A DNA stretch of 64,000 nt from Kiritimatiellia bacterium (GTDB lineage Bacteria > Verrucomicrobiota > Kiritimatiellia > RFP12 > UBA1067). The translations under genes were made by a program, and so were the position numbers. The DNA lies in NCBI GenBank assembly GCA_045535455.1, contig JAZSLQ010000253.1, positions 906-64,905 on the forward strand. The letters are read 5' to 3'. Within the stretch, counting starts at the first letter, position 1. Each line of letters begins with the position of its first letter. The notes under the pieces were generated by a model, which had not been told where the DNA came from, did not search any database, and worked only from the letters and a program-made list of their open reading frames with translations. Shown here in pieces: positions 11,343-61,808 of this stretch.

Positions 11343-11345
11343 CGT

Positions 11346-28007: not shown

Positions 28008-28154
28008 AAAATGGAAAAGTGTTCCCTCTCGATTTGTGCAGATATGTGTGGATTTGTGGTTAAAAGTAAGTACAATCCAAGACCCTAAGTAACTCTAAAT
28101 CACCCTAACATCACTGTTTTGGATCGATTGATGAATGGTTAATCGAATTCGCGC

Positions 28155-30770: not shown

Positions 30771-31888
30771 CGATAAAGAGAAACATTTTGCTTAACCCGG
30801 GCCCGGCGACAACGACAGATACAGTGAAGCTCGCCCAGGTTGTTCCCGATATTTGCCCACGCGAAAAGGACTTTGCCGGGTTGATGAAGGGCCTTCGCCG
30901 CGACCTTGTAAAAATTGTGCATGGCGATGACCGCTACACCAGCGTTCTCTTCTGTGGGTCTGGGACGCTAAACATGGACGTGTGCCTCAATTCCCTCCTC
31001 CCGTCAGGTAAGAAGATCCTTGTGGCAAACAACGGAGCCTATTCGTCTCGTGCCGTCGAGATATGCAAGGCATACGGGATGCCGCATATAAATTTATCGA
31101 TGCCGATTGAACAGCCGATTGATGCTGCGGCGGTAGAGAAGGCCCTTGTTGAGAATCCCGACGTTGCCGTTGTATATACGACGCACCATGAGACAGGTTC
31201 TGGCGTTCTCAATCCAATACGCGAAATTGGGGCGGCAGCGCATCGCCACGATTGCACATTTATTGTTGATACGACTTCTACCTATGCGATGCGCCCAATT
31301 AACATCATCGATGACAATGTCGACTTCTTGATGGCAAGCGCACAGAAGGGCTTGCAGTCCATGACAGGGCTGTCCTTCGTCGTTGGCCGCGAGGACAAAA
31401 TACGCGAATCGGCTGCATTCCCAAAGCGTTCATACTACTGTAACCTCTTTTTTCAGTATGACTATTTCGAGAAGACAGGTGAGATGCACTTCACGCCGCC
31501 GGTCCAGACGGTTTATGCTACGATCCAGGCGTTGAAAGAATATTTCGCAGAAGGGGAGGTCGCGAAGTGGGCACGCCACACTCGCGTGTTTGAGGCCATT
31601 CATAAAGGGCTTGAAGGCCTTGGCTTCCGAAATCTAATCAAACGCGAATATCAAAGCGGGCTTGTCGTGTCCGTCTGCTATCCCGACGATCCGAACTGGA
31701 ACTTCGAGAAGGTCCACGACTACTGCTACGAGAGGGGCTTCACGATCTATCCCGGCAAGGTCGGCTCCGCCAAGACGTTCCGCCTCTGTGCGCTGGGGCA
31801 GATCGACGAACAGGATATAACGGATTTCTTCAAGGTTTTCAAGACGGCTTTGGACGAATATGGAATCGAGGTCAGATACAATGGCTAA
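30767..31888 (+). CDS. phnW: 2-aminoethylphosphonate:pyruvate aminotransferase
   Basis: 373 aa. LLNPGPATTTDTVK N-terminus and the PLP lysine context SAQKGLQS, typical of PhnW/AepZ. Confidence 0.85.
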   Translation: MTIKRNILLNPGPATTTDTVKLAQVVPDICPREKDFAGLMKGLRRDLVKIVHGDDRYTSVLFCGSGTLNMDVCLNSLLPSGKKILVANNGAYSSRAVEICKAYGMPHINLSMPIEQPIDAAAVEKALVENPDVAVVYTTHHETGSGVLNPIREIGAAAHRHDCTFIVDTTSTYAMRPINIIDDNVDFLMASAQKGLQSMTGLSFVVGREDKIRESAAFPKRSYYCNLFFQYDYFEKTGEMHFTPPVQTVYATIQALKEYFAEGEVAKWARHTRVFEAIHKGLEGLGFRNLIKREYQSGLVVSVCYPDDPNWNFEKVHDYCYERGFTIYPGKVGSAKTFRLCALGQIDEQDITDFFKVFKTALDEYGIEVRYNG

Positions 31889-33185: not shown

Positions 33186-33189
33186 ATCC

Positions 33190-35085: not shown

Positions 35086-35273
35086 TGTTTGCATACGTTG
35101 ATCCGTCTGTCATGTCGTACACCGTCCAGGCGATTGCGGGAGTCGCTATTGCGCTTGGCGTTGTATTCGGTGTCGTCTGGCGGAAGGTCAAGAAGGGGGC
35201 GAACAAAGCTCTCGGTCGAGATGAGAATTCAGGTAAGGAAGTTGAGGAAGATATCGTTGCCAAAGAGGATTAA
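35082..35273 (+). CDS. Small single-pass membrane protein (63 aa)
   Basis: ATGA overlap with the upstream stop. One TM helix (VQAIAGVAIALGVVFGVVW) and a charged tail. Confidence 0.45.
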   Translation: MMFAYVDPSVMSYTVQAIAGVAIALGVVFGVVWRKVKKGANKALGRDENSGKEVEEDIVAKED

Positions 35274-35276
35274 GAG

Positions 35277-36944
35277 ATGGACAGGTTGAAGGCAAGATTT
35301 TCACAATTGCATTTTGTTCAGGCGGTGCTTTGCGCATTGGCCTTTTCGTTCTTCTTTACACTCGCATTGCCGTTGCAAAGTTATATTAGCAATAGGTTGA
35401 TGTTTGAATATGACCTTGGAGATTTGCTCTCGGAAGTTATTTTGATATTTTTTGTTAGTTTTATTGTGCTAACAATGTTATTGCTTGTGGCGGAGTACAT
35501 TTTTGGAAGGTTCCCGATTTTGCTAATGTTAATTGCAGGAATTTGTGGATATCTTGAGGTTGGAATCTTATCTATATGGCTGCCGCAATTAAATGGAGAA
35601 CTGTGGCTGTTTGCGAGACCGTCAATTCGCCTTTATTTAGATGTGATTGTTTTTATATTGCTTTTGGTTTTGGGGATATGGTATCGGAAAAGATTGTATG
35701 GATGGATGACATGGGGAGCCATAGGTTTCATTATTATGAGTATAGCGTTCATTATGGATACGAGTAGCGCAAGGTGTCAGAAAGTGATAAGGACAGCATT
35801 TGATGACGGATTTTGTCCTGCGTATGACATGGTGCGAAGTGTAGTATTCTCAACAAACCGCAATGTTATAGTGATAAGCATTGATTCTGCCCCAGCAGAT
35901 CTTACAGCGGAAATCATAGAGGAAGATAAAAACCTTAAAAGTCAGTTCCCTGGTTTTATAGAGTTTAAAAACAACATAGGTATGCATGATTGTACAACGC
36001 GAGGGACGCCAGCATTTGTAACTGGTAATTATCTTGAAAAAGAGACTTCGCTTCAAGAGAACGAAGCCTCATTCTGGGGCGATAACTCAGTTGTAAAGAG
36101 TTATCTTGATGCCGGGTACAATATGTTTGTTCGAATGGGTGCGGGGAAGAGCTACACAAACAGGAGAACTTTTGTATATTCTACCCCTAGCCACGATGAA
36201 TCTAAATGGCATCTGCTTCGGTATACAAAAGACACCCCATACATAACCCTTCTGGATGTACTTTGTTTTAGAATTGTTCCTTATCGTCGTAAGTTATGTG
36301 TTATAAACAAGGCAATTTGGCGAGGTGAAGCGATTAAGGGTAATGGTTTAAATATGGTTTATCGGGAGTGGCAGGTATATCCGATTTTGAAGAGTGCAGA
36401 AATTCTTAAAGAGCCAAAGGGAAAATGTTTTTGTTTGTTGCACACGGAGGGGGTTCATGTGCCAATCATAAAAGGTCGTCATGGTGAGGATTTTGTAGGG
36501 GATTCAAATTCTCGTGAGGCAATCAAAGCGGCATTACATTACATTCTTGATCAGTTTGCGGACCTGATGCGCACTTTTAGAGAAAGAGGAATATATGATA
36601 ATTCAATGATTGTATTTTCAACGGATCATGGTATTGTAAGAACGCCCAAATCTGCACTGCTGTGGGTTAAGCCATTTAATGACCGGGGCGAATTTTATTC
36701 CAGTGGCATTCCTACGAGTCACAGCAAGATATCTAATCTTTTGAAGAAATCTGTATCGGGTGATTTGTCGCGGGAGCAGATTATAGATGCCCTATCGCAA
36801 AAGGAAAGGAAACTTCGTATCAAGCAGCCATCGCCGGAGAAATGGTGGTATTTTGGACGAGTGATTGATACATACGATATTATATATGACGAGTTTGGAA
36901 ATGAAACCAAGAGGGAGAATCTTGGTGAGTTTAAGATAAACTAA
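35277..36944 (+). CDS. LtaS/EptA-like membrane sulfatase-family transferase
   Basis: 555 aa with about 5 N-terminal TM helices, then an alkaline-phosphatase-superfamily region (VIVISIDSAPAD, HTEGVHVPI, VFSTDHG). Low GC. Confidence 0.65.
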   Translation: MDRLKARFSQLHFVQAVLCALAFSFFFTLALPLQSYISNRLMFEYDLGDLLSEVILIFFVSFIVLTMLLLVAEYIFGRFPILLMLIAGICGYLEVGILSIWLPQLNGELWLFARPSIRLYLDVIVFILLLVLGIWYRKRLYGWMTWGAIGFIIMSIAFIMDTSSARCQKVIRTAFDDGFCPAYDMVRSVVFSTNRNVIVISIDSAPADLTAEIIEEDKNLKSQFPGFIEFKNNIGMHDCTTRGTPAFVTGNYLEKETSLQENEASFWGDNSVVKSYLDAGYNMFVRMGAGKSYTNRRTFVYSTPSHDESKWHLLRYTKDTPYITLLDVLCFRIVPYRRKLCVINKAIWRGEAIKGNGLNMVYREWQVYPILKSAEILKEPKGKCFCLLHTEGVHVPIIKGRHGEDFVGDSNSREAIKAALHYILDQFADLMRTFRERGIYDNSMIVFSTDHGIVRTPKSALLWVKPFNDRGEFYSSGIPTSHSKISNLLKKSVSGDLSREQIIDALSQKERKLRIKQPSPEKWWYFGRVIDTYDIIYDEFGNETKRENLGEFKIN

Positions 36945-37012
36945 ATAGTTTGCTTTGCAGACAGAAGTGCTTGCTTGTAGACATTTATTGATGCAATATA
37001 TGTAGGGTAGAA

Positions 37013-37138
37013 ATGTCACCCAGCCGTCGAATATTCTTGAACATTGTTGCTACGTACGGGCGGAGTTTGTATGCGCTTGTGTGTGGGCTGTTCATTGGTC
37101 GGTGGGTGTTGGTAGCGTTAGGCGACGTAGCAGGTTGA
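37013..37138 (+). pseudogene. N-terminal remnant of a second Wzx-type flippase gene
   Basis: MSPSRRILLNIVATYGRSLYALVCGLFIGRWVLVALGDVAG* aligns by eye with the N-terminus of the intact flippase at 39795 (TRIILNAVATYGRSVIAVILGLFSVRWIFMGIG). Only 41 codons, with higher GC than the surroundings. Confidence 0.6.
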
Positions 37139-37181
37139 AACTCATGATGGTCATCAACTCATAAGGTGAGGAAAATTTATA

Positions 37182-38039
37182 ATGCTTGGGAGAATTCGAT
37201 CAAAATTGGTTAGCGCATTTCGCAGGTTTTCATTAATGTTTAAAGTGCGCGTTCCTGTTTATGTGCCCGTATTGAAGAATGATCTTCTATCTGGCCGAAA
37301 AGCACTTATCACAGGAGGTACAGGGGGAATTGGCTATGCAATAGCAAAGGCCTTTCTTGAATGTGGCGCGATAGTTTGCATAACAGGACGAAGTGAGGAG
37401 CGGGTTAATTGTGCGATAAGGCTTTTGCAAGAGGATTTTACTATAGTTGGTGATGTGAAACGAAGGATCTATGGTATAGCGATGGACAATCTTGATGTCA
37501 TGGCATTCCCTGAAAAAGTTAAGACAGTTTGTGAGATGATGCAAGGGTTAGATATTTTAGTCAATAATGCAGGTGTGGTAGGAAGCGATGGCTCGGAGTC
37601 TAGTTATGACTTGGTTTTAGCAACCAATACGAAAGCGCCATATTTTTTATCAAATATAATAGCTAAGGACTGGATTTCAAAAGGAATTAAGGGGAATATA
37701 TTAAATGTTTGTTCGTCATCTAGCCTTAGGCCAGGGCAGAATCCATACATTATATCCAAATGGGGACTTCGTTCTATAACACTTGGCTTGGCTAGGTCAT
37801 TTGCAGCAAAAGGTATTGTTGTCAACGGGATTGCACCGGGACCGACAGATACTGAATCCATGAGAAAACTTTCTGGCATAGGCATAGATTGGACCAAGAA
37901 TCCGACAGGGCGCTTAGTGACAAAGCAAGAAATTGCAAATTTGGCGGTTGTTCTTGTCAGCGACTTGAGCCGAATGGTTATAGGTGATATTCTATATGTA
38001 TCTGGAGGTGCAGGAGTTGTCACCTTTGATGATGTTTAA
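37182..38039 (+). CDS. Short-chain dehydrogenase/reductase (SDR)
   Basis: 285 aa. TGGTGGIGYAIA cofactor motif and YIISK (YxxxK) catalytic motif. Confidence 0.85.
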   Translation: MLGRIRSKLVSAFRRFSLMFKVRVPVYVPVLKNDLLSGRKALITGGTGGIGYAIAKAFLECGAIVCITGRSEERVNCAIRLLQEDFTIVGDVKRRIYGIAMDNLDVMAFPEKVKTVCEMMQGLDILVNNAGVVGSDGSESSYDLVLATNTKAPYFLSNIIAKDWISKGIKGNILNVCSSSSLRPGQNPYIISKWGLRSITLGLARSFAAKGIVVNGIAPGPTDTESMRKLSGIGIDWTKNPTGRLVTKQEIANLAVVLVSDLSRMVIGDILYVSGGAGVVTFDDV

Positions 38040-38052
38040 GGAGATCCCCATC

Positions 38053-39798
38053 ATGCCCCACTATTCAGATGAAAAGAATGTACAGATTACGCTTTCACTT
38101 CTAAAAGCACATGGAATAAAGCGTATTATCGCAAATCCAGGATCGTCTAATTTTTCATTTGTAGGTAGCGTTCAGTCAGACCCCTACTTTTCGGTCTATT
38201 CTGGAGTGGATGAACGACACTCGGCGTATATGGCATGTGGAATGGCTGCGGAAAGCGGTGAGCCTGTTGTCCTTAACTGTACTGGTGCAACTTCAAGCCG
38301 TGATTATATGCCGGCGCTGACAGAGGCTTATTATCGAAAATTGCCGATTCTTGTCATCACGTCTTCACAAGTGAATTCCCATTTGGGACAACTTTGGGCA
38401 CAAATGACTGATCGCCTGCACCCCCCTTCGGATGTCGTCAAGTTGACTGTTGACTGCCCTGTGGTCAGAACTATTCAAGATGAACAAGATTGTGCACGCT
38501 TTATCAATCAGGCGATTTTGGAATTAAAACATCGTGGTGGTGGCCCTGCGCACATCAACCTTCAGATAAGCCACTGCACGAGTTTTTCAACGACCGATTT
38601 GCCCAAAGTTCGGAAGATAGATCGTGTGACGGTCTGTCAGGCTGACTGGCCTAATTTACCAAGGAACGCAAAGATACTGATATGGATTGGCACCCACAAG
38701 TGTTTTTCGCATGATGAAACCGCCGCAATGGCTGATTTTGTTACTAATCACAATGCTGTGGTTCTGTGTGATCATACGAGTTCGTATACGGGAAAGGGAG
38801 CGGTTACGTCGGCGATTGTTTGTTCGCAAGGAGTTCGCAATGTTCCTAAGTTCCATAAATTGACGCCTGATTTGATTATACATATTGGAGAAGTATCAGG
38901 AGACGCTCCAACCAATGGATATCTTGCAAGGCTTGCTCCCGTTTGGAGAATTAGTGAAGATGGGGAGATACGAGATCGTTTAGGTAAACTTGAATTTGTT
39001 TTTGAGATGCCAGAGAAGTTCTTTTTTGAAAAATATAAAGAGCAAGAACCTTGTGAAGGTTCATATTTCCAATCTTGGCGGGATGCGGTTGAATCATTAA
39101 GGAATTCAGTTCCAGAATTACCTTTCTCAAATCCATGGATGGCGCAGCGCTTGTGCGGTTCTCTGCCAAGAAACAGCACAATTCATTTCTCAATTCTTAA
39201 TAGCTTGAGAAGTTGGAATTACTTTGATAAAGATTTTTCTATTTCATCAATGTGCAATGTCGGTGGATTTGGAATTGACGGATGTACTTCCGCATTGGTT
39301 GGCGCATCACTCATTAATTCGAGGCGAATATACTTTTTAGTTACTGGCGATTTAGCATTTTTCTATGATTTGAATGCTCTTGGGAATCATCATATAGGAA
39401 AGAATGTCAGAATCTTGCTGATAAACAATGGTGCAGGAGGAGAGTTTCATATGTATAATAATGCTACTTCTCAGTTTGGTGAACATACAAGTGACTATAT
39501 CTCGGCCGGTGGGCACTTCGGTAATAAGTCGCGGACTTTTGTAAAACACATAGCAGAAGATCTTGGGTTTAAGTATATGACTGCATCCACAAAGAAAGAG
39601 TTCGATGAGTCCATGGAAGAGTTTCTTTCTTTAGATCTGGATAAATCGATAATATTAGAATGTTTTACAAAATTGGAAGACGAGTCTAAGGCATTGTTGG
39701 TTCTGAATACGTTAGATGAGGATGCCCAGCGCAAGGCGAAATTGTCACGGTATGTACCTACTCCTATCAAGAGTGTTGTTAAAAAGATATTGGGATGA
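38053..39798 (+). CDS. Thiamine-diphosphate-dependent enzyme (acetolactate synthase/MenD-like fold)
   Basis: Start moved to MPHYSDEKNV (ATG 38053, SD AAGGAG). N-terminal ThDP-pyrimidine domain pattern IIANPGSSNFSF and C-terminal GDLAFFYDLNAL...LLINNGAGGEF. Confidence 0.75.
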   Translation: MPHYSDEKNVQITLSLLKAHGIKRIIANPGSSNFSFVGSVQSDPYFSVYSGVDERHSAYMACGMAAESGEPVVLNCTGATSSRDYMPALTEAYYRKLPILVITSSQVNSHLGQLWAQMTDRLHPPSDVVKLTVDCPVVRTIQDEQDCARFINQAILELKHRGGGPAHINLQISHCTSFSTTDLPKVRKIDRVTVCQADWPNLPRNAKILIWIGTHKCFSHDETAAMADFVTNHNAVVLCDHTSSYTGKGAVTSAIVCSQGVRNVPKFHKLTPDLIIHIGEVSGDAPTNGYLARLAPVWRISEDGEIRDRLGKLEFVFEMPEKFFFEKYKEQEPCEGSYFQSWRDAVESLRNSVPELPFSNPWMAQRLCGSLPRNSTIHFSILNSLRSWNYFDKDFSISSMCNVGGFGIDGCTSALVGASLINSRRIYFLVTGDLAFFYDLNALGNHHIGKNVRILLINNGAGGEFHMYNNATSQFGEHTSDYISAGGHFGNKSRTFVKHIAEDLGFKYMTASTKKEFDESMEEFLSLDLDKSIILECFTKLEDESKALLVLNTLDEDAQRKAKLSRYVPTPIKSVVKKILG

Positions 39799-41378
39799 CG
39801 GATAAAACAAGGATAATTCTAAATGCCGTTGCGACATATGGCCGCTCTGTTATTGCGGTCATATTGGGCCTATTTAGTGTTCGGTGGATATTTATGGGAA
39901 TAGGTCAGGTTGATTGGGGGTTATATGGAGTTGTTGGAAGTTTGATTGTATTTATCACGTTTCTCAATACAACAATGGCAGGAGCCGTTTCTAGATTCTA
40001 TGCCTATTCTATTGGTTATGGAAAAACTGTCGCAAAGGAAATTGGGGATGCGGACATTTGCAGGTGGTTTAACACGGCTGTGACGATTCATTCAGCCCTT
40101 CCTATAATGCTTGTGTTGGTTGGATATCCTATCGGTGTTTATGCTATTAATAATTGGTTGGTAATCCCTGCCGAACGAACAATTGCGTGTCTTTGGGTTT
40201 TTAGGCTATCATTAATCTCGGCATTTGTAAGCATGATTTCTGTTCCATATATTGCAATGTTTCAGGCACACCAATTGATTTGGGAAGTGTCCATAATAGG
40301 AATCGTTCAAAGCTTCGTTTCGTTTGCATTTGCATATTCAATCTCTTTCGTTCCCAATGATAAGTTGATTTACTACGCTGGCTACATGTCGACAGTGACT
40401 ATCTTCTTTTCGGTTGCTCAGATTGTATGGGCATATGTGCGGTTTGATATGTGCCGAATAAGAAAAACATATTTATTTGATAAGAGTCGGCTAAGATCTT
40501 TTTTTACCTTTGCAGGGGCAAAGGTGTTTGGTGCGATATGCGTCATAGCTCGAACACAAGGTGGGGCACTATTGTTGAATATATTCTTTGGACCTCAGAT
40601 AAATGCGGCATATTCACTTTCAACGCAAGTCTCGGGGCATACGGCGGCACTATCTCAAGCATTGGTGGGCGCGTTGCAACCTGCAGTTGCTACGCGTGAG
40701 GGGGCTCAAAATCGAACAGGCATGATGCGACTTGCCGAATCCGCCTGTAGGATTTGTGTCGTTCTGGTCTTAGTTTTTGCGGTGCCGCTGATGGTTGAGA
40801 TTGATTGGGTTTTGAAGACTTGGTTGAATGATCCCCCCCAGTACGCTGCGGTTTTCTGTTCAAGCATGTTGATCATGCTTTTGTTTGACAAGTTGTCTGT
40901 TGGCTATATGCTTGCGGCGAATGCGTATGGAAAGAGAATAGTAGTTTATGAAATAACAAACGGTATCATTTTGGTAAGCGCAATCCCAATCTCATATTTC
41001 CTATTCAAGTATGGATTGCCGCCATATTGGTTGCCGTTAATCTTATGTGCGACCATGTTGCTATATGCTGTAGCAAGGGTTAACTTTTGTAGATGGCAGC
41101 TGAATGTGTCAGTTCGAAAGTGGTTGGAGTCAGTTGTTATTCCTGTTTGCATTCTGTCTTTCCTTGCAATTGTTCTTGGAATTTTTGTTTCAAGACAGGT
41201 GTCCCCGTCGTTTCTGCGAGTTTGCCTTGTTAGTCTTCTGACCGGTTTATTGATAATTGTGGGTGGAGTGTGGGGCGTTTTTAAGAGCGATGAGCGTGCG
41301 GCATTATTCGGTATTTTGAGGAGGCTTCCTTGCAGATTTTACCGAAATGGAGCAGCAAGGAATGGGCATGTCGAATGA
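39795..41378 (+). CDS. wzx: Wzx-type polysaccharide/oligosaccharide flippase
   Basis: 527 aa, polytopic membrane protein (12+ hydrophobic segments). ATGA overlap with the upstream gene, in a polysaccharide locus. Confidence 0.7.
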   Translation: MTDKTRIILNAVATYGRSVIAVILGLFSVRWIFMGIGQVDWGLYGVVGSLIVFITFLNTTMAGAVSRFYAYSIGYGKTVAKEIGDADICRWFNTAVTIHSALPIMLVLVGYPIGVYAINNWLVIPAERTIACLWVFRLSLISAFVSMISVPYIAMFQAHQLIWEVSIIGIVQSFVSFAFAYSISFVPNDKLIYYAGYMSTVTIFFSVAQIVWAYVRFDMCRIRKTYLFDKSRLRSFFTFAGAKVFGAICVIARTQGGALLLNIFFGPQINAAYSLSTQVSGHTAALSQALVGALQPAVATREGAQNRTGMMRLAESACRICVVLVLVFAVPLMVEIDWVLKTWLNDPPQYAAVFCSSMLIMLLFDKLSVGYMLAANAYGKRIVVYEITNGIILVSAIPISYFLFKYGLPPYWLPLILCATMLLYAVARVNFCRWQLNVSVRKWLESVVIPVCILSFLAIVLGIFVSRQVSPSFLRVCLVSLLTGLLIIVGGVWGVFKSDERAALFGILRRLPCRFYRNGAARNGHVE

Positions 41379-53987: not shown

Positions 53988-56204
53988 ATGAAACAGATAT
54001 TGCAATCATTCAAGACAGGTGAAATGTGGCTCGCTGAAGTGCCGGCGCCGCTTTGCAAGGGCAAAGGGGCGGTGGTGCAGACAGCCGCAAGCTTCGTGAG
54101 CGCGGGGACGGAGCGTATGCTCGCCGAGTTCGCCAAGAAGGGACTCGTCGGCAAGGCGCTGCAAATGCCAGACCAAGTGAAAAAGGTCATCCGCAAGATG
54201 AAGACGGAGGGCGTCTTCGCCACTCTTGAGAAAGTGCAGGCGAAACTCGATCAGCCGATTCCGCTTGGCTACTCATCGGCGGGTGTTGTCGTTGAGGCGG
54301 GACGAGATTCGGGCTTCAATGTTTGCGACCGTGTTGCCTGTGGTGGCGCGGGATTCGCAAATCACGCGGAGTTCAACTATGTGCCGCGCAACTTGATGGT
54401 TAAGATTCCGGATGGCGTGAGCTTCGAGGACGCGAGCTGCGCGACGGTCGGATCGATCGCGCTGCAGGGCGTTAGGCAGTGCGAGGTGAATCTCGGAGAG
54501 ACGGTCGCGGTGATCGGACTGGGGCTTATGGGCATTCTTGCCGTCCAGATGCTGAAGGCGAGCGGATGTCGAGTAATCGGGTTCGATCCGAATTCAGGGC
54601 GTTGCAAGCTCGCGGAGGAGATGGGCTGCGATAGGGCGGTCAGCGACAATTTTGCCGCGGAGTGTATGGCGTTCTCGGGTGGCTTCGGCGTCGATGCGGT
54701 GCTTATTACTGCGGCGACGCATTCTGACGAGCCGGTGACAGTCGCGGCGGAGATCAGCCGCAAGAAGGGCAAGGTCGTTGCGACGGGGCTTGTGGGGATG
54801 AATTTGCCTCGCGACCAATACTACAAGAAAGAAGTTGATTTCCGGCTTAGCTGCTCCTACGGCCCTGGACGCTATGACCCTGTGTATGAGGAGCAGGGTA
54901 TTGATTATCCGTTTGGCTATGTTCGTTGGACGGAGCAGCGAAACATGGCGGCATTTTTGCAGCTTGTCGCGGAAGGGAAGGTTACACCGTCGAAGCTTGT
55001 GACGCATAGATTCAAGTTTGATGACGCGCTTGATGCCTACCAGGTGCTGCTGGGAATCAAGAAGGAGCCGTATCTTGGTATCGTCTTGGAGTATGGAGAT
55101 GTTTTAACGCAGAGGCGCGAAGGCGCAGAGGACGCAGAGATTTGCAGGAGGGTAGATTTTGGTCGCCCCTCTGCACTAAAAACAGAAAATGTAGGCGTGT
55201 CGTTTATAGGGTGCGGGAATTTTGCGAAGGCGGTGCTGCTTCCGACGCTAAAGAAAACGAAGGGAGTAGCCTTCCGCGGCGTTTCCACCGCGACAGGAAT
55301 GAGCGCCACAGACACCGCAAAGAAGTACGGCTTTGCATTCGCCGCAACGGATCAGGCCGAGGTGCTGAAGGATGCGGAAACGAACCTCGTTATGGTGACA
55401 ACACGCCATGATATGCATGCCACACAGATCAAGGCGGCGCTTGATGCCGGGAAGTACGTATTCTCCGAAAAGCCACTTTGTATCAATGAGGAACAGTTAG
55501 AGAAACTTTTAGCCACAAAGGACACAGAGATCACAAAAGAGTCCTCTGCAACTCTGCGACTCTGCGACTCTGCGTTAAAAAATCGCGTTATGATCGGCTT
55601 CAATCGCCGCTTCTCGCCTCATGCCAAGTTGCTGAAGGAGTATTTCTCGAAGCGGACGCTGCCGCTTGTGATGCACTATCGCGTCAACGCGGGGTCGATT
55701 CCGAAGGACATCTGGCTTCAGGACCCGGAAGTTGGCGGCGGACGTATGGTTGGCGAAGGATGTCACTTCATTGACTTCATGAGCTATGTCTGCGGTGCGC
55801 CGGTTGAGAAGGTTCAGGCGATGTGCATCAAGACGGCAAATGGGGCCGAGACGCCGGAGGACTCGATTAGCGTCAATCTCCAGTTTGCGGACGGCAGCGT
55901 GGGAACGCTTGAGTATGTCGCTCTCGGCGACACGACGCTGCCGAAGGAGTTCTGCGAAATACACGGCGAGGGCTCGACGGCGACGATGGACAACTTCTGC
56001 AAGACCGTCTGCTCCGGCAAGCTTGGAAAGCGCAAGCTGAAAGGCAAGCAGCAGAAGGGGTTCAGGGAGGAGTTGGAGGCGACGATTGAGGCGGTGAAGA
56101 ATGGGAAAGCGATGCCGATTCCGTTTGACCAGATTCTCAATGTCACGAAAACAACTTTTGCTGTACTCAAGGCCGTCAAGTCTGGGCAGAGCGAAGAAGT
56201 CTAA
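53988..56204 (+). CDS. Bi-domain oxidoreductase: MDR/alcohol-dehydrogenase-like N-domain + Gfo/Idh/MocA C-domain
   Basis: 738 aa. The N-terminal half has an MDR pattern (GYSSAGVV..., VAVIGLGLMGILAVQ). The C-terminal half has VSFIGCGNFA Rossmann and GFNRRF motifs. Carries two heptad-array repeats in linker regions. Confidence 0.8.
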   Translation: MKQILQSFKTGEMWLAEVPAPLCKGKGAVVQTAASFVSAGTERMLAEFAKKGLVGKALQMPDQVKKVIRKMKTEGVFATLEKVQAKLDQPIPLGYSSAGVVVEAGRDSGFNVCDRVACGGAGFANHAEFNYVPRNLMVKIPDGVSFEDASCATVGSIALQGVRQCEVNLGETVAVIGLGLMGILAVQMLKASGCRVIGFDPNSGRCKLAEEMGCDRAVSDNFAAECMAFSGGFGVDAVLITAATHSDEPVTVAAEISRKKGKVVATGLVGMNLPRDQYYKKEVDFRLSCSYGPGRYDPVYEEQGIDYPFGYVRWTEQRNMAAFLQLVAEGKVTPSKLVTHRFKFDDALDAYQVLLGIKKEPYLGIVLEYGDVLTQRREGAEDAEICRRVDFGRPSALKTENVGVSFIGCGNFAKAVLLPTLKKTKGVAFRGVSTATGMSATDTAKKYGFAFAATDQAEVLKDAETNLVMVTTRHDMHATQIKAALDAGKYVFSEKPLCINEEQLEKLLATKDTEITKESSATLRLCDSALKNRVMIGFNRRFSPHAKLLKEYFSKRTLPLVMHYRVNAGSIPKDIWLQDPEVGGGRMVGEGCHFIDFMSYVCGAPVEKVQAMCIKTANGAETPEDSISVNLQFADGSVGTLEYVALGDTTLPKEFCEIHGEGSTATMDNFCKTVCSGKLGKRKLKGKQQKGFREELEATIEAVKNGKAMPIPFDQILNVTKTTFAVLKAVKSGQSEEV
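55104..55148 (+). repeat. Heptad-array repeat, type A (CGCAGAG orientation)
   Basis: TTAACGCAGAGgcgcgaagGCGCAGAGgaCGCAGAGatttgcagg, translated in frame as LTQRREGAEDAEICR. Confidence 0.85.
55543..55578 (-). repeat. Heptad-array repeat, type A (CTCTGCG orientation), convergent partner of 55104-55148
   Basis: cctctgcaaCTCTGCGaCTCTGCGaCTCTGCGTTAA, translated as SSATLRLCDSALK. Its reverse complement shares TTAACGCAGAG plus further heptads with 55104-55148. Confidence 0.85.
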
Positions 56205-57688
56205 TGGCGATCGGTAGATTAGTTAGAACGTTGCAATATCTGAAGCTCCGTCAGATCTGGTATCAGGTTTGGCGTAGGATTCAGAAGGGGCTTGAAGCAC
56301 ATCCGAAGTGTGGAGGCGAAGAGCTGCCGGAGTTTACATTTCTCAATCTGACGGCGAAGCCGAAGGGATGGAATGACGAGTCACTGGATATGCTGTGGAG
56401 GTATAACCTGCATTACTTCGATTGGGTTTTAACGCAGAGGCGCAGAGACGCGGAGTACGCAGAGAATCTACTGGAGAGGTGGATAAAAGATAATCCTAAA
56501 GGTTGCGTCCCTGGTTGGGATCCATACCCCACGAGCCTTCGTATTGTCAATTGGGTTAAATATCTACAAACCCGCTCTGCGCACTCAGCGTCTCTGCGCC
56601 TCTGCGTTGAAAACTCCTTGCGCGCTCAGCTCGATTACCTCGCTAAGCACATAGAATGGCACATCCTTGCGAATCACCTCCTCGCCAACCTCAAGGCACT
56701 TGTAATCGGGAACAGGTTTCTTGGACGTGATTGTGATAAATGGATGCGGCTCTACGAGAAACAGATTGGTGAGCAGGTGTTGCCAGATGGTGGACACTAC
56801 GAGCGTAGCGTCATGTACCATGCAATCATCCTGGAGGATGTGTTGGATGTAATCAAGTTCTGCGGCGAAGATGCCGCTTGGCTAAGGCCGGTTGCGGCGA
56901 AGATGCTGCGCTATCTAGTCAACATGACCGGTCCGGACGGAAAGATTGCCATGTTCAACGATGCTGCCGATGCTATTGCCAAGCCTACAGATTGGATTGT
57001 CAGTTACGCAAATAAACTTGGCTTTGAAGCACCGATTGCAGAGCCGTTTGTCGATTTTCCTGATACGGGCTACACGCGAATGACTGTGGGAGATTTCGTT
57101 TTATTTGTAGATACTGCTCCGATAGGTCCCGACTACCAGCCGGGGCATGCGCATGCCGATACGCTCACCTACGAGTTGTATTACAAGGGGCGGAAGGTTG
57201 TGACAGATTCCGGTACTAGCGAATATCGCGGCAAAAGACGTGCATTCGAACGTTCGACCGCCGCCCACAATGTCGTGGAGGTCGGCGGACGCAATTCAAG
57301 CGAGGTTTGGAGTTCGCACCGTGTCGGGGCGAGAGCGAGAATTGTGAAGCGCGGGGTCGAACAGGGACGAATTTTCGCCGCGCACGATGGATACGGGTTT
57401 GAGGTCGGAAGGGAATGGCGACTCACGAATGAAGGACTTTCTGTAACGGAGCGGGTAAAGAGCTCGGGCAATTGTGTCACGAGGGTCCACATGAGTTTAG
57501 CCGCAAAGGACGCAAAGTTAGCAAAGGAAGAAATTTGTTTTGAGACTACTGGGATTAATGTCAAAGGGCTTGTTGATTTTAAAGAGTATGAATATGCTGT
57601 TGAGTTTGGCAAGTCGGAAAAAGGTGTGTGTATGTCTAGTGCTTTCAATGGAGGAGAGTTCTCGTATTCAATAATCCCTACGGTTTAG
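56204..57688 (+). CDS. Heparinase II/III-like family protein (polysaccharide-locus type)
   Basis: 494 aa. LWRYNLHYFDW, GWDPYPTSLRIVNWVKY and WHILANHLLANLKAL match my recollection of this family. TAATG overlap with the upstream gene. Confidence 0.75.
   Translation: MAIGRLVRTLQYLKLRQIWYQVWRRIQKGLEAHPKCGGEELPEFTFLNLTAKPKGWNDESLDMLWRYNLHYFDWVLTQRRRDAEYAENLLERWIKDNPKGCVPGWDPYPTSLRIVNWVKYLQTRSAHSASLRLCVENSLRAQLDYLAKHIEWHILANHLLANLKALVIGNRFLGRDCDKWMRLYEKQIGEQVLPDGGHYERSVMYHAIILEDVLDVIKFCGEDAAWLRPVAAKMLRYLVNMTGPDGKIAMFNDAADAIAKPTDWIVSYANKLGFEAPIAEPFVDFPDTGYTRMTVGDFVLFVDTAPIGPDYQPGHAHADTLTYELYYKGRKVVTDSGTSEYRGKRRAFERSTAAHNVVEVGGRNSSEVWSSHRVGARARIVKRGVEQGRIFAAHDGYGFEVGREWRLTNEGLSVTERVKSSGNCVTRVHMSLAAKDAKLAKEEICFETTGINVKGLVDFKEYEYAVEFGKSEKGVCMSSAFNGGEFSYSIIPTV
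56429..56464 (+). repeat. Heptad-array repeat, type A (CGCAGAG orientation), left arm of a 36-bp inverted repeat
   Basis: TTAACGCAGAGGCGCAGAGACGCGGAGTACGCAGAG, translated as LTQRRRDAEYAE. Confidence 0.9.
56575..56610 (-). repeat. Heptad-array repeat, type A, right arm (33/36 reverse-complement match to 56429-56464)
   Basis: CTCTGCGCACTCAGCGTCTCTGCGCCTCTGCGTTGA. Its reverse complement TCAACGCAGAGGCGCAGAGACGCTGAGTGCGCAGAG differs from the left arm at 3 positions. Translated as SAHSASLRLCVE. Confidence 0.9.
57500..57527 (+). repeat. Heptad-array repeat, type B (CGCAAAG orientation)
   Basis: GCCGCAAAGgaCGCAAAGttaGCAAAGG in the 3' part of the heparinase-like gene (LAAKDAKLAKE). Confidence 0.8.
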
Positions 57689-57698: not shown

Positions 57699-57725
57699 GT
57701 CGTGTGTGTCGCATATTGTAAAATT

Positions 57726-57752
57726 CTTTGCGACCTTTGCGTTCTTTACGGC
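57726..57752 (-). repeat. Heptad-array repeat, type B (CTTTGCG orientation) in the 5' UTR of the GT4 gene
   Basis: CTTTGCGACCTTTGCGTTCTTTACGGC. Its reverse complement GCCGTAAAGAACGCAAAGGTCGCAAAG matches 58981-59007 at 25/27 positions. Confidence 0.9.
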
Positions 57753-57765
57753 TAAAACCAAAACA

Positions 57766-59016
57766 ATGAAAATCCTATTTTTTTCTCATTACTATACTCC
57801 TGAGGGCAATGCCCCGGCAACGCGAGTGAGCGCATTGTGTGAGCGCTGGGTAAAGGCCGGGCACGATGTCACGGTCGTGACATGTCCGCCGAATGTTCCG
57901 AATGGAATCGTCTATGACGGCTACGCCAACAGGCGTACTAGCGAAGTCATCAACGGCGTCAAGGTCGAGCGCGTGAAGCTCTACATCGCCGCCAACAAGG
58001 GTGCGGTCAAGCGCATGTTCAACTTCGTCAGCTACTTTCTGAAGGCGCTCTTAGCAGCGTTGCGGTTGCCGAAGCCGGATGTCGTCGTTGCGACGAGTCC
58101 GCAGATATTCTGTGGCTATGCTGGAGTATGGTACAAGCGATTGAGGCATGTACCGTTGGTGATTGAGATACGTGATATCTGGCCTGAGTCGATGGGCGCG
58201 GTTGGCGCGAACATCCCGAAGATCGCCTACTGGAATCTCGAGCGAATAGAGAAGGCGATGTACAAGAAATGCGACCGGCTCGTTACGCTTGGACAAGGAT
58301 ACTATGACCGCCTTGCCGAAAAGGGTGTGCCGAAGGAGAAGATGTCCATTGTCATGAACGGCACCGACCTCGCGGTATATTCGCCGCGAGAGAAGAATGC
58401 AGAGCTGCTGAAGAAGTTTGGCCTAGAGGATAAGTTTGTTGTGAGCTACATCGGGACTGTTGGCATGGCCTGCGGACTGGAGGTTGTATTGGATGCGGCG
58501 GAAATTATTAGCCGCAAAGATCGCAAAGAGGTAGTGTTTGTGGTTGTGGGAGACGGTGCACACAGGGAGCGATTGGAGTCGGAGGCGAAAAAGCGTGGAC
58601 TGGCAAATGTAGTATTCACGGGACGACAGCCGAAAAGTTCGATGCCGGATTGGGTGAGTTCGAGCGATGCAAGCCTCGTTCATTTGAAGAAGACCGAGCT
58701 GTTTACGACGGTGATGCCGAGCAAGATATTCGAATCAGCAGGGTGCAAGCGACCGATCATAATGGGCGTGGACGGTTTTGCGAAGAAGCTTGTGATGGAT
58801 GCGAATGCTGGACTCGACATGACACCCGAAAACGCCGATTCGCTTGTTGAGTGCGTTGAGAAGTTGGTCGGAGACCCTGAGCTTTGTAAGCAGCTGGGTG
58901 AAAACGCCTACAACAACATCGCCAAAGTCCATAACCGCGACAAGCAGGCAGAAGATTATCTGAAGACTCTTGAGATGTTAGCCGCAGAGAACGCAAAGGT
59001 CGCAAAGCCTTTGTGA
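57766..59016 (+). CDS. Glycosyltransferase family 4 (WbuB-like)
   Basis: Start moved to MKILFFSHYYTPEGNAPATRV (ATG 57766), the typical WbuB-type N-terminus. C-terminal GT-B motif region. Confidence 0.85.
   Translation: MKILFFSHYYTPEGNAPATRVSALCERWVKAGHDVTVVTCPPNVPNGIVYDGYANRRTSEVINGVKVERVKLYIAANKGAVKRMFNFVSYFLKALLAALRLPKPDVVVATSPQIFCGYAGVWYKRLRHVPLVIEIRDIWPESMGAVGANIPKIAYWNLERIEKAMYKKCDRLVTLGQGYYDRLAEKGVPKEKMSIVMNGTDLAVYSPREKNAELLKKFGLEDKFVVSYIGTVGMACGLEVVLDAAEIISRKDRKEVVFVVVGDGAHRERLESEAKKRGLANVVFTGRQPKSSMPDWVSSSDASLVHLKKTELFTTVMPSKIFESAGCKRPIIMGVDGFAKKLVMDANAGLDMTPENADSLVECVEKLVGDPELCKQLGENAYNNIAKVHNRDKQAEDYLKTLEMLAAENAKVAKPL
58511..58530 (+). repeat. Heptad-array repeat, type B (short copy) inside the GT4 gene
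   Basis: GCCGCAAAGatCGCAAAGAG, translated as SRKDRKE. Confidence 0.55.
58981..59007 (+). repeat. Heptad-array repeat, type B, at the 3' end of the GT4 gene
   Basis: GCCGCAGAGAACGCAAAGGTCGCAAAG, translated as AAENAKVAK. Inverted partner of 57726-57752 and of 59022-59035. Confidence 0.9.
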
Positions 59017-59021
59017 TCTGT

Positions 59022-59035
59022 GCGTTCTTTGCGGC
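59022..59035 (-). repeat. Half-copy of the type B repeat forming a 14-bp stem with 58981-58994 across the GT4 stop codon
   Basis: GCGTTCTTTGCGGC is the reverse complement of GCCGCAAAGAACGC, with one G-U position against 58981-58994. The loop is 27 nt and contains the stop at 59014-59016. Confidence 0.8.
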
Positions 59036-59048
59036 AAAAGGAATATTT

Positions 59049-60203
59049 ATGAAAATAGTATCAGTAGTAGGGGCGCGGCCGAACTTCATGAAGGTTGCGC
59101 CGTTCTGTCGTGCGCTTAAGGCATATCCTGACGTAAAGCACGTACTGGTCCATACGGGGCAGCACTATGACGTCAGGATGAGCGAGCAGTTCTTCAAGGA
59201 GCTGGACATCCCCAATCCCGACATCAATCTCGAGATTGGTTCTGGGTCTCATGCCGAGCAGGTCGGGCGCACGATGATTGCGTTCGAGAAGGTGCTACGC
59301 GAGGGGAAGCCCGATTGGGTTGTGGTGCTGGGCGATGTCAATGCGACGTGCGCGTGTTCCATTACGGCGAAGAAGGAGCATATCAAATGTGCTCATATTG
59401 AGGCGGGTTTGCGAAGCCGCGACATGGACATGCCTGAGGAGATAAATCGACTCGTGACAGACCGACTCAGCGACCTTCTGTTGACGCCCGATCGGCTGAG
59501 CAATGCAAATCTCAAGGCAGAGGGTGTGCCAGATGAGAAGGTCAAGTTTGTCGGCAACATCATGATCGACACTCTTGAACGCGAGCGTGAGAAGGCGGCG
59601 GCGCTTGATCTGTCCAAGATTGTAGCAGACAATCTTATAGATGAATATCCAACCTCCGCCTCTCTGCGCCTCTGCGCCTCTGCGTTAAAAGATAGAAAAT
59701 ATGTTGCAATGACGATGCATCGTCCGAGCAATGTGGATCAACGCGAGACACTGGAGCCGGCAATGAGGTTCTTTCTCGACGAGATTACGAAGGAATATCC
59801 GATTGTCTGGGCGATACACCCGCGCGCGCAGAAGATGCTGAAGGAGTTTGGGCTCTGGGACGAGGTTGTGGCTAATGAGAATATGATCCTTGTCAAGCCG
59901 CTTGGCTATCATGCGATGCTGCGGCTCAACATGGGTGCGCGGCTCTTCATGACCGACTCCGGTGGCCTTCAGGAGGAATGTTGCGTACTTGGGACGCCAT
60001 GTCTCACGATGCGGTGGAACACCGAGCGTCCGATCACGCTGATGGAAAATGGCGGCGCATCCATCCTCGTCGGCAATGCGGTCGGGAAGATGCGCGATGC
60101 CTATCGGTCGCAGATTGATGCGCCACGTCATGCGATGCGCCCCGAACTTTGGGACGGACATACGGCGGAAAGAATCGCGGAATGCATTGTAAAAGGAATG
60201 TAA
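59049..60203 (+). CDS. UDP-N-acetylglucosamine 2-epimerase (non-hydrolysing), second paralog
   Basis: Start moved to MKIVSVVGARPNFMKVAP (ATG 59049). CAHIEAGLRSRD and TDSGGLQEECCVLGTPCLTMRWNTERP. Carries a type A repeat in the interdomain linker. Confidence 0.88.
   Translation: MKIVSVVGARPNFMKVAPFCRALKAYPDVKHVLVHTGQHYDVRMSEQFFKELDIPNPDINLEIGSGSHAEQVGRTMIAFEKVLREGKPDWVVVLGDVNATCACSITAKKEHIKCAHIEAGLRSRDMDMPEEINRLVTDRLSDLLLTPDRLSNANLKAEGVPDEKVKFVGNIMIDTLEREREKAAALDLSKIVADNLIDEYPTSASLRLCASALKDRKYVAMTMHRPSNVDQRETLEPAMRFFLDEITKEYPIVWAIHPRAQKMLKEFGLWDEVVANENMILVKPLGYHAMLRLNMGARLFMTDSGGLQEECCVLGTPCLTMRWNTERPITLMENGGASILVGNAVGKMRDAYRSQIDAPRHAMRPELWDGHTAERIAECIVKGM
59653..59688 (-). repeat. Heptad-array repeat, type A (CTCTGCG orientation), solo copy
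   Basis: cctccgcCTCTCTGCGcCTCTGCGcCTCTGCGTTAA, translated as TSASLRLCASALK. I saw no convergent partner within the gene. Confidence 0.85.
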
Positions 60204-60216: not shown

Positions 60217-60972
60217 ATGGTAAAAGTAGGAATAGTTGGCTGTGGTTTTGTGGGCGGAGCCCTAAAGGCATGGCTTGAAGAGAACAACAAGGACGCCCAA
60301 ATCTTTGTGAGTGATCCGCCAAAGGGATATAATGACGACCTTTCGCAGATCGACATCGCGTTTCTGCAGATACATGTCCCTACCGAGGATGACGGAACAC
60401 AGGATCTGACTCTGATGAAGCAGCTCATCAAAGGGCTGCCGAATGTCCCAGTGTTCGTCAGAACGACGATTCTCCCAGGAACGAGCGATATGCTTTCGAA
60501 GGAGACTGGACATCAAGTCTGCTATATGCCGGAGTTCTTAACGGAGAGGACGCATATCGAGGACTTCAAGAAGCAGACGATGGTGTTCACCGGAGCGGTA
60601 GACCTGCTGGTGAAAGTTTTCCCAGGCAAGAAATTCACCGTGATGAGTCCGTTGGAGGCAGAACTTACGAAGTACATCCACAATGTCTTCGGGGCGTACA
60701 AGGTCACCTACTTCAACGCGGCGAAGGAGTATGTCGAGAAGATGGGTGGCGATTGGGCGAAGGTCCACACAGGTGTTCTCCTCTCTGGCTACATCAACGA
60801 CACGCATACATATGTTCCTGGCCCAGATGGAAAGTGCGGATATGGCGGCAAGTGCTTCCCTAAGGACGTCAATGCGTTTGCGAAGATGACGAAGGGTACG
60901 TCGATGGGAACGCTACTGGCTCCGCTCCACGAGTTGAACGTCCACTTCCGAGGCTTTGAAGAGCACATCTAA
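60217..60972 (+). CDS. Short UDP-glucose/GDP-mannose-dehydrogenase-family-like NAD-binding protein
   Basis: 251 aa. Rossmann motif VGIVGCGFVGGAL and catalytic-Cys context GYGGKCFPKD. Appears to lack the C-terminal UDP-binding domain of full-length enzymes. Confidence 0.6.
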   Translation: MVKVGIVGCGFVGGALKAWLEENNKDAQIFVSDPPKGYNDDLSQIDIAFLQIHVPTEDDGTQDLTLMKQLIKGLPNVPVFVRTTILPGTSDMLSKETGHQVCYMPEFLTERTHIEDFKKQTMVFTGAVDLLVKVFPGKKFTVMSPLEAELTKYIHNVFGAYKVTYFNAAKEYVEKMGGDWAKVHTGVLLSGYINDTHTYVPGPDGKCGYGGKCFPKDVNAFAKMTKGTSMGTLLAPLHELNVHFRGFEEHI

Positions 60973-60974: not shown

Positions 60975-61808
60975 ATGTACTATCTCAACAAGATAATCGG
61001 TTTTCTTGTAAGTCCAATTGGGGGTGCGATTGCAGGAGGCATTGCCGCGGTTGTCTGTGCGCGGCTGGGGCGTAAGCGTCTCGCCAAATGGCTCGGTGGG
61101 CTTACGGTCGCATGGTTGTGGCTCTGGATGACGCCGATCATGACATGGGTTGTCGGCGTGCCGCTTGAGCGCGAATTTCTTGTCGACGGAAGGGTGCCGG
61201 CGGTTGAGACATTTTCGGAGACTGACGCTATCGTGCTTCTTGGCGGAAGCATGGGAGTCGAGACGAATCTAAGCCAGTATGCCGAGATGTGGACAAGCGC
61301 GGATCGTGTATGGCAGGCGGCGCGGCTCTACAAGGCAGGGAAGTCGAGTAAGATTATCGCGACTGGAGACTATGCGAAGGATACGACGCTGCCGCTGCTG
61401 AAGGAGTTTGGAGTGGGGGAAGAGACGGTGTCGTTTCTCGATGCGAGGACTACGGAGGAAGAGGCGAAGGGGATTAGGGAATTATTTAGCCGTGTAGAAC
61501 ATGTAGATCGTGTAGATGGGGGGATTGGCAGCCGCAAAGAACGCAAAGATGATAGTCGTGTAGAAGGGGGAGAGGTGAAGGTATTTTTGGTGACGAGTGC
61601 GTGGCACATGAAGCGAGCGAGGTTGATGTTCAATAAGTATGCGCCAGAGATTGAGGTTGTCTGTGCGCCAGCGGACTTCGAGAATACTTTTATGGCATGT
61701 CAGACGCCTTTCTTTAAGGTTGTCCTACCTGACTCAACAATATTTTACTTGAACTCCGTTGCTTTTCACGAGTGGGTAGGTATTGTTGGGTATTCGATTT
61801 TCAGATAA
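60975..61808 (+). CDS. DUF218 (YdcF/ElyC-like) protein with an in-frame repeat insertion
   Basis: 277 aa with N-terminal TM helices and the DUF218 motif FLVTSAWHMKRA. A 9-bp-periodic repeat block sits just upstream of this motif. Confidence 0.75.
   Translation: MYYLNKIIGFLVSPIGGAIAGGIAAVVCARLGRKRLAKWLGGLTVAWLWLWMTPIMTWVVGVPLEREFLVDGRVPAVETFSETDAIVLLGGSMGVETNLSQYAEMWTSADRVWQAARLYKAGKSSKIIATGDYAKDTTLPLLKEFGVGEETVSFLDARTTEEEAKGIRELFSRVEHVDRVDGGIGSRKERKDDSRVEGGEVKVFLVTSAWHMKRARLMFNKYAPEIEVVCAPADFENTFMACQTPFFKVVLPDSTIFYLNSVAFHEWVGIVGYSIFR
61488..61575 (+). repeat. Composite 9-bp-periodic repeat block (CGTGTAGA units plus a type B CGCAAAG array) inside the DUF218 gene
   Basis: CGTGTAGAaCATGTAGAtCGTGTAGAtgg (61491-61519), GCCGCAAAGAACGCAAAG (61531-61548), CGTGTAGAagg (61557-61567). 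Translated as SRVEHVDRVDGGIGSRKERKDDSRVEGG. Confidence 0.8.

Follow-up and report, generated by a model that had tools for sequence, protein, structure and literature searches.

Two heptad arrays in an oxidoreductase gene of a Kiritimatiellia bacterium as probable arms of separate foldback-type repeat elements

Among the closest described counterparts of the repeats reported here, which lie in a bi-domain oxidoreductase gene within a 64,000-nucleotide (nt) stretch of DNA from a Kiritimatiellia bacterium (contig JAZSLQ010000253.1; hereafter the window), are the Rickettsia palindromic elements (RPEs), i.e., in-frame palindromic inserts that are translated as loop peptides and whose copies differ between close relatives. 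RPEs, however, are families of 100-150 bp that are confined to Rickettsia and have conserved middles, whereas here the conserved part is an arm of 30-40 nt made of tandem 7-nt units (heptads), the middle is arbitrary or native sequence, and more than 10 phyla are involved. Because the host lineage is Kiritimatiellia/Lentisphaerota, we claim RPE-like behavior only, and not membership of the RPEs. Our interpretation is that two arrays in the oxidoreductase gene are probably the better-preserved arms of two separate, in-frame palindromic elements, belonging to a dispersed family of selfish repeats that resembles Foldback elements, MITEs (miniature inverted-repeat transposable elements), and RPEs.

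Like these repeats, MITEs (such as Correia elements and RUP) and repetitive extragenic palindromes (REPs), including the REPIN form, are small, non-autonomous, multi-copy inverted repeats without coding capacity, with conserved outer ends and A/T-rich flanks (TTTA..TAAA). They differ in that here no clean target duplication, parent insertion sequence (IS), or REP-associated tyrosine transposase (RAYT) was found, and MITEs also differ in that the arms here are tandem arrays of unequal length rather than fixed terminal inverted repeats, with many intragenic copies. The arm architecture may also be likened to that of eukaryotic Foldback (FB) elements, whose long, unequal inverted arms of tandem short sub-repeats surround a heterogeneous middle and whose outer end is conserved. 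FB elements are, however, eukaryotic and on a kilobase scale, and we know of no sequence or enzyme link between them and these arms. Mitochondrial hairpin elements (GC clusters, double-hairpin elements, and the RHE of sponges) are small mobile hairpins that invade repeatedly and can sit in coding regions, although they are organellar and GC-rich, lack tandem heptad arms, and have no sequence relationship to the arms described here.

Short tandem arrays of a 7-nt unit are known as the TAACTGA arrays of Beggiatoaceae, Cyanobacteria, and Bacteroidetes, and as the cyanobacterial short tandemly repeated repetitive (STRR) sequences. The TAACTGA heptamer is common to distant phyla without a known mechanism and is mostly intergenic; its sets are perfect 7-nt tandems, inverted in 1/170 and clustered just upstream of start codons (PMC4679880). 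Here, by contrast, the period is 8-9 nt, the spacer letters vary, there is a terminal cap, inverted pairs dominate, and there is no start-codon bias. A full-text literature search with the repeat strings and related repeat topics yielded no description of a family of capped heptad arms. With Rfam covariance models, at the gathering score and at permissive E-values, the only match in the window was a tRNA, the best results in 54.8-62 kb being chance matches to microRNA or small RNA hairpins far below threshold.

The two arrays and their local partners

The left array (55102-55139; all features are given on the plus strand) reads directly as TTTTAAC followed by GCAGAG, CGCGAAG, CGCAGAG, and CGCAGAG, with G, G, and GA as spacers, and the right array (55544-55582) as CTCTGCA and three copies of CTCTGCG, with a single A between units, followed by TTAAAAAA. 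A first-pass annotation had described them as arrays of one heptamer in opposite orientations with a terminal TTAACGCAGAG in common, and this was borne out. CGCAGAG occurs three times within 55108-55139 and CTCTGCG three times within 55552-55574, TTAACGCAGAG capping both, and the frequencies are far above chance: the window holds 23 copies of CGCAGAG, a number that none of 100 shuffles (10.9 +/- 3.5) reached, with 16 of the 23 in 55.1-59.7 kb, and 6 copies of TTAACGCAGAG at up to 1 mismatch against 0.78 expected. The two arrays are 85% complementary across 33 nt, with about 421 nt between them.

Both arrays lie in one open reading frame (ORF; 53988-56204, 738 amino acids), whose translation includes the peptides LTQRREGAEDAEICR and SSATLRLCDSALK; LTQRREGAEDAE and SSATLRLCDSALK are among its insert peptides. 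Pfam places ADH_zinc_N at residues 182-297 (the medium-chain dehydrogenase/reductase, or MDR, part), GFO_IDH_MocA at residues 404-510, and a C-terminal domain from residue 569, while the arrays correspond to residues 373-384 and 519-531. By these limits the first array falls in the linker between the domains, and the second comes shortly after the Rossmann portion of the Gfo domain, in keeping with their earlier assignment to the MDR/Gfo linker and to a loop of the Gfo domain. An AlphaFold2 model was poor overall (mean pLDDT 54.6) and was used solely for the low-confidence stretch at residues 512-527 (pLDDT below 50), which is flanked by better-predicted segments. The reading frame stays open across all intragenic copies of the arm.

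Each array has a partner of its own close by. Element A (55102-55182), in the linker between the MDR and Gfo/Idh/MocA domains, comprises a left arm (55102..55139; cap TTTTAAC with CGCAGAG, CGCGAAG, CGCAGAG, and CGCAGAG, coding VLTQRREGAEDAE), a 26-nt middle (55140..55165) coding I-C-R-R-V-D-F-G, and a remnant of a right arm (55166..55182; CCCCTCTGCACTAAAAA), seen from the alignment of the window with L171 and L119, from the L120 hairpin, and from folding. The middle consists of native codons, since RRVDF is kept in 120/120 close homologues, and distant ones have R-K-V-x-F/L as an echo of it; the loop sequence was found again solely in orthologues. The right arm has mostly been lost through a 42-nt deletion common to the window and L119, relative to the L171 orthologue (89% nt identity), in which it is complete and reads ...CTCCGCGTCTCTGCGACTCTGCGTTAAAAAC. 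At this site the hairpin is complete and compact in L120, and likewise in P0006, where it belongs to the capped heptad family. The RRVDF codons are flanked, in different orthologues, by the arms of hairpins from at least three heptad families that are unrelated to one another.

Element B (55507-55582) is located in a loop at the protein surface, beyond the Rossmann part of the Gfo domain. Its left arm (55507..55541; TTTTAGCCACAAAGGACACAGAGATCACAAAAGAG, i.e., cap TTTTAGCC followed by ACAAAG, CACAGAG, and CACAAAAG, coding LLATKDTEITKE) has decayed by G>A transitions at CpG. Its right arm (55544..55582; CTCTGCA, three CTCTGCG, and cap GTTAAAAAA) codes SSATLRLCDSALKN. On the minus strand, where the G>A changes give G:U pairs, the folding energy of the 84-nt stretch is -33.2 kcal/mol (z -4.35), as against -18.7 kcal/mol on the plus strand. 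Complete TTAACGCAGAG (CGCAGAG) hairpins are present at site B in P0019 and P0026, one of them with another arm-like insert nested in its loop. In L119, which is 93% identical in protein and has the same element A as the window, site B holds an unrelated GTTGGAG/CTCCAAC hairpin of about equal length; in L120 it holds yet another (GATTGTTT/AAACAATC), and in L121, L133, and L137 it holds nothing.

The first-pass annotation had joined 55104-55148 and 55543-55578 into one pair about 395 bp apart. This is contradicted by the local partner beside each array and by the orthologues L171 and L119 and the homologues P0006 and P0019. The comparative data indicate instead that the two arrays are survivors of two independent elements, and the apparent 395-bp pair would have arisen because A lost its right arm and the left arm of B decayed.

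The alignment of 120 oxidoreductase homologues (78-100% identity, 711-806 amino acids) places most of the length variation at sites A and B, with other gap-rich stretches near residues 211-216 and 424-429. The variable segments read as translated heptad arrays of many kinds, among them LTQRR..AE, AAKNAESAK, RVEHVERVDRV, LDRIDKIDRI / NPDNPVNPV, and GVGELGVGEL / NSQTLNSQTL, and close homologues have other repeat families, or none, at identical codons. These close relatives are metagenome-assembled genomes (MAGs) of gut Kiritimatiellia/Lentisphaerota. At these positions the loops of distant homologues (40-50% identity; Chloroflexota, Nitrospirales, Victivallaceae, and Bacteroidota) are short and plain, and none of these homologues carries an array. 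A comparison with homologues, which had been proposed earlier, thus identifies the arrays as lineage-specific additions to the linker and the loop. The density of arrays of period 7-9 is 2.5 per 10 kb for Kiritimatiellia loci, compared with 0.66 for the distant ones.

A dispersed family of capped heptad arms

Contigs of gut metagenomes (4 DNA runs) were placed on the region and their word depth was counted. Depth rose about 5-30 fold exactly over the arms, i.e., at 55092-55155 (left arm of A), 55540-55603, 56372-56499, and 56564-627, and 6-100 fold, depending on the run, at 57722-57757 and 59654-59690. Over the right arm of B it reached 230-355, compared with about 10-60 in the flanks, with loose contig ends at 55544 and 55580-82; loose ends at arm borders were heterogeneous.

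A scan for TTAACGCAGAGNCGCAGAG in one genome per species (2 x 596 Gb) found it at at least 118 loci in more than 10 phyla. Herpetosiphon, Acidobacteriota, Verrucomicrobiota, Kiritimatiellia, Victivallales, Planctomycetota, Gemmatimonadota, Desulfuromonadales, Nitrospinia, Bacteroidota, and Chlamydiales were among the carriers in the matches listed. About 17 matches would be expected by chance for a random 18-mer in this amount of DNA, and the actual matches carry additional heptads and mirrored partners. The heptamer is enriched beyond the window as well, the arms being multi-copy elsewhere. A second family (TTAGCC with CGCAAAG) was present at at least 120 loci, on many contigs per genome in some MAGs. 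Nine copies were found in viral contigs, and a plasmid BLAST search with element C (described below) gave no match.

From these copies, an arm can be described as about 30-40 nt in which a cap, either TTTAAC or TTTAGC with TTTA..TAAA as outer flank, precedes purine-rich heptads (CGCAGAG, CGCAAAG, CACAGAG, and others). For the cap T-TTAAC, the T at -1 is present in 81%. By a strict count across the at least 118 listed loci, there are 2-4 heptads per arm, with up to 6 at L110; their spacing is 8-9 nt, the spacer being mostly 1 nt (G or A) and at times 2-3 nt. Neighbors of the same family within 300 nt are convergent, with caps outward, in 55 cases and divergent in 6; in general, most arms form such convergent pairs, which surround some 1-200 nt of unrelated DNA. 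The inner distance of such pairs is 11-176 nt and their middles are unrelated between loci; within one genome the arm alone is shared, the sequence beyond it being different in each copy. Apart from a weak T-run (14% vs 3% background), no conserved inner flank follows the arms. L061 and L110 are seemingly orthologous (reverse-complementary middles, matching flank) and have 3 and 6 heptads, respectively, from which it follows that slippage occurs. Partner arms have unequal heptad numbers in half of the pairs and identical spacers in 33%, as against 24% for non-partners, so that the idea that they are exact copies of each other was weakly supported. The orientation of lone arms showed no bias with respect to downstream start codons, and a role for them in the 5' untranslated region or as Shine-Dalgarno sequences was rejected on that ground. 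Tandem duplication of whole units that contain an arm was seen at L069 5970-6260 (an Acidobacteriota MAG; period 70 nt), L035 1584-2150 (Herpetosiphon llansteffanensis; 187 nt), and L239 (a rumen MAG; 71 nt).

When the family is set against the features that define MITEs, terminal inverted repeats are present, as cap-outward inverted arms in elements A-E (C, D, and E are described below) and in the 55:6 excess across phyla, but a shared middle and a parent IS are not, the middles being unrelated even within one genome (a partial check, on 8-kb loci). Nor do the arms resemble REPs or REPINs, which are extragenic, imperfectly palindromic units of 20-40 nt that bear a GTAG or CGTC tag and are accompanied by a RAYT gene in the genome. 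The arms are purine-rich tandem heptads without self-complementarity whose copies here are intragenic, and no Y1 transposase was found in the window.

Related elements and turnover in neighboring genes

The next gene, encoding a heparinase II/III-like protein, contains element C, with arms at 56427..56464 (LTQRRRDAEYAE) and 56575..56612 (SASLRLCVE) that are 92% complementary. The 110 nt between them code the conserved segment ERWIxxNPxGxxPGWDPYPTSLRIVNWVK. Here the earlier observation that the next gene has the same arm order proved real, and its conclusion that a common mechanism rather than coincidence is involved was supported, the arrays of both genes having a shared origin. The order itself (CGCAGAG arm before CTCTGCG arm), although seen in both genes, is general to the family, given the excess of convergent pairs, and nothing peculiar to these two. 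In heparinase-like homologues, array turnover like that in the oxidoreductase affects the two loops flanking the conserved segment, and a left arm tends to be accompanied by a right arm (odds ratio 10.8, p 2.5e-4, without correction for relatedness). Inverting 56429-56610, between the C arms, leaves the ORF without stops, which is probably due to chance, as about 36 codons are involved.

Element D belongs to the second family. Its left arm (57496..57526; cap TTTAGCC, heptad CGCAAAG) is in the 3' part of the heparinase-like ORF and its right arm (57722..57757; TTCTTTGCGACCTTTGCGTTCTTTACGGCTAAAA) is intergenic, before a GT4 gene, so that the two bracket the 3' end of the heparinase-like gene; neither is present in L119. 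The right arm was the most over-represented arm in the metagenomes, with a word depth of 400-1140 in X1, X3, and X4 vs about 10-30 in the flanks, and of about 50 vs 8 in X2. Element E (58978..59038), a compact hairpin of the second family at the junction of the GT4 and epimerase genes, folds at -40.9 kcal/mol (z -8.2), and its site is empty in several orthologues. A lone right arm, F (59654..59690; three CTCTGCG and TTAAAA, coding SASLRLCASALK), lies in the UDP-GlcNAc 2-epimerase ORF, where the array replaced a loop without a change in length. Arrays G (61483..61563), in a DUF218 ORF, consist of TTTAGC and three copies of CGTGTAGA, followed by two of CGCAAAG. Array turnover was also evident in loops of the GT4 and epimerase proteins.

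In other strains, a compact hairpin of a further family, the ATTTGTG family, codes one and the same peptide, KPQIGTNQHKSGDGICEDKCGFVV, in the linker of the oxidoreductase and in both loops of the heparinase-like protein. Because this peptide recurs in two different proteins, the hairpin can move as a unit. A lone intergenic arm of this family (GATTTGTGCAGATATGTGTGGATTTGTGGTTAAAAG, cap GTTAAAA) is present in the window at 28031-28066, followed by a CCCTAA-like array at 28082-28114. Small GC-rich palindromes lie beside or inside heptad arms at L138 6001-8316 (site A), L028, L032, L223, and L227; some are GTAG-tagged and REP-like (e.g., GTAGGGGCGGGTTTGAAACCCGCCC and CGGACGGGACAGAGCCCGTCC). In L138 they sit in frame in the oxidoreductase linker, which therefore accepts several repeat classes. 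RNA contigs from gut and bovine metatranscriptomes span an arm and the native middle (56431-56581, 56376-526), and because they read through the arms, the arms are not removed from RNA.

Several features of the wider window were also noted. G+C falls from about 0.62 (1-12000) to 0.42-0.57 past a tRNA gene (12293-12366); heptad arms are absent from the low-GC polysaccharide part (36-52 kb), and seven sites lie in 54-62 kb. Where the polysaccharide locus begins, a perfect 18-nt inverted repeat (26263-26280 / 26411-26428; ATATACCACTTAGTTAGC / GCTAACTAAGTGGTATAT) encloses 130 bp; with a tyrosine recombinase gene (24952-26220) directly on one side of it and a NusG/UpxY-like gene (26563-27048) on the other, the layout looks like an invertible promoter. 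Within the polysaccharide cluster is a phosphonate-type module (29002-41378), with genes for a phosphoenolpyruvate mutase-cytidylyltransferase fusion (31860-33185), two thiamine pyrophosphate-dependent decarboxylase-like proteins, an aminotransferase, and a glycerophosphotransferase-YidC-like fusion. At 5993-6046, where a spacer separates argJ from a gene with PD40 repeats, is a near-pure (TAAAGTT) x7.7 array of a different kind, uncapped and without an inverted partner. Finally, an ORF of 251 amino acids at 60217-60972, resembling UDP-glucose/GDP-mannose dehydrogenases, has partial matches to the N-terminal and central domains; it is a conserved short form and not a local truncation, since it is 94-96% identical in two relatives.

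Origin of the arms and competing explanations

The arms are present in many copies and across phyla, gain and lose length, can be deleted, stay in RNA, and keep the reading frame open. We suggest that the elements are selfish, non-autonomous foldback-type repeats of the MITE/REPIN/RPE kind. An activity acting in trans would install them, and slippage during replication, together with template switching from one arm to another, might assist. Of the copies that lie within genes, selection would spare only those that are in frame, lack stops, and occupy tolerant loops, where they would be translated as hydrophilic filler (LTQRR..AE / ..LRLC.SALK).

Several points weigh against this interpretation. 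The window contains no transposase, RAYT, or reverse transcriptase. No recurrent neighbor gene, but only generic domains, was found across the at least 118 listed loci, and no convincing transposase-like ORF was enclosed by long-range arm pairs (8-kb loci only; ORFs without a Pfam scan). The middles are unrelated between copies and are native sequence in A, C, and D, so that a plain cut-and-paste hairpin fails, because it cannot put native codons in its loop, and the spacer identities lend no support to simple copying of one arm into the other. Comparison of filled and empty site E (the window vs L119) revealed no clean target-site duplication, in a single comparison with about 92% flank identity in which the TTTA..TAAA flanks are themselves palindromic. 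That several unrelated hairpin families surround the same RRVDF codons can also be read as selection for structure, and the metagenome depth mixes organisms and is not a count in the source genome. It is conceivable, if rather doubtful, that an undescribed, widespread, dedicated enzymatic system, which might be a repeat-adding polymerase or a structure-specific recombinase, installs cap-outward heptad arrays flanking short DNA and so rewrites loops and spacers in place. If such a system exists, it would account for the caps shared by unrelated heptad families, for the native middles, and for the 55:6 polarity.

Of the remaining explanations, replication errors alone are the least improbable, although we regard them as unlikely. 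Slippage would build the arrays and short-range template switching, by which hairpins are documented to arise (PMC8794818, PMC8604942) and to be maintained (PMC8794818), would copy an arm in reverse complement, leaving native codons in the loop. This would fit the native middles of A, C, and D, the replacement of the loop at site F without a change in length, and the variation in heptad number between orthologous copies. It does not account for near-identical 19-mers with caps in more than 10 phyla, with many copies per genome in unrelated flanks, nor for the caps common to unrelated heptad families, and partner arms are not exact copies. Somewhat less likely still is that the hairpins are selected, cis-acting mRNA or DNA structures (causing ribosome pausing at the domain boundary, determining stability or RNase III cleavage in the polysaccharide operon, or serving as protein-binding arrays), so that turnover with retained pairing would represent covariation. 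The bracketing of RRVDF by at least three unrelated families, the co-occurrence of left and right arms in the heparinase homologues (with its lack of correction for relatedness), folding z scores down to -8, and the presence of arms in RNA contigs are all in line with this. However, many orthologues have no hairpin at all, or have two arrays that do not pair (AAKNAESAK with RVEHVERVDRV); the same arms occur in unrelated and intergenic settings in many phyla, without orientation bias to downstream start codons; the structure is strand-symmetric, with G:U pairs favoring the minus strand in B and the plus strand in E; and A and B are visibly decaying.

The remaining proposals treat the arms as partners over a distance or as recombination sites. 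We consider it very unlikely that 55104-55148 and 55543-55578 form one long-range inverted repeat that brackets about 395 bp of the Gfo Rossmann fold and works as a unit, be it a stem in RNA or DNA or a pair of sites for recombination. Their complementarity (85% across 33 nt) would permit it, and the minimum-energy fold of a 506-nt RNA does pair both arrays (z -3.45), but each arm has an adjacent partner, L119 keeps the left arm of A with another family at B, L121, L133, and L137 lack B altogether, and the spacer letters differ (G, G, GA vs T, T, TT). In addition, inversion of the segment yields 5 stops, and contig joints proved to be other compact copies rather than variants of this locus. 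An intragenic invertible segment for polysaccharide phase variation, with arms serving as sites for the recombinase encoded at 24952-26220, seems scarcely more credible, if anything less so. The setting is suggestive, in that the polysaccharide locus includes a tyrosine recombinase and, separate from the arms, a perfect inverted repeat of 18 nt, and a NusG/UpxY-like gene lies upstream; 56429-56610 also keeps its ORF open when inverted. Yet the contigs of 4 DNA and 4 RNA runs showed no inverted form (contigs drop minor forms), the 18-nt repeat does not resemble the arms, stops result when 55104-55578 is inverted, and the family is widespread outside polysaccharide loci. Most improbable of all is that the arms are sites like the attC sites of integrons, whose core sites (R''/R') have the consensus RYYYAAC ... 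GTTRRRY and which also feature L boxes and extrahelical bases. The caps RTTTAAC and GTTAAAC fit this consensus, but the second-family caps TTAGC/GCTAA do not; the recombinase in the window scores 24-33 bits on two NCBIfam integron-integrase models, whose cut-offs are 265 and 435; among the neighbors of the at least 118 listed loci, no tyrosine recombinase is recurrent; no arrays of same-orientation sites separated by cassettes were found; and the stems are long tandem repeats. The arms sit inside conserved ORFs, and not between cassettes.

If our preferred interpretation, i.e., a dispersed family of selfish foldback-type repeats, is correct, one family of tiny elements would have spread across many bacterial phyla, and the question would arise how the 35-nt arm, and not the whole element, can be the dispersed unit, yet occur as oriented pairs around native DNA. 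The family would also be a source of assembly breaks and chimeric metagenome contigs and of spurious low-complexity ORFs in databases (LTQRRR..., ...LRLCASALK), and for annotation heptad arrays should be masked as repeats rather than treated as gene-specific signals. In gut Kiritimatiellia, the surface loops and linkers of housekeeping enzymes would be routinely rewritten by such elements, which would thereby be a source of variation in protein length.

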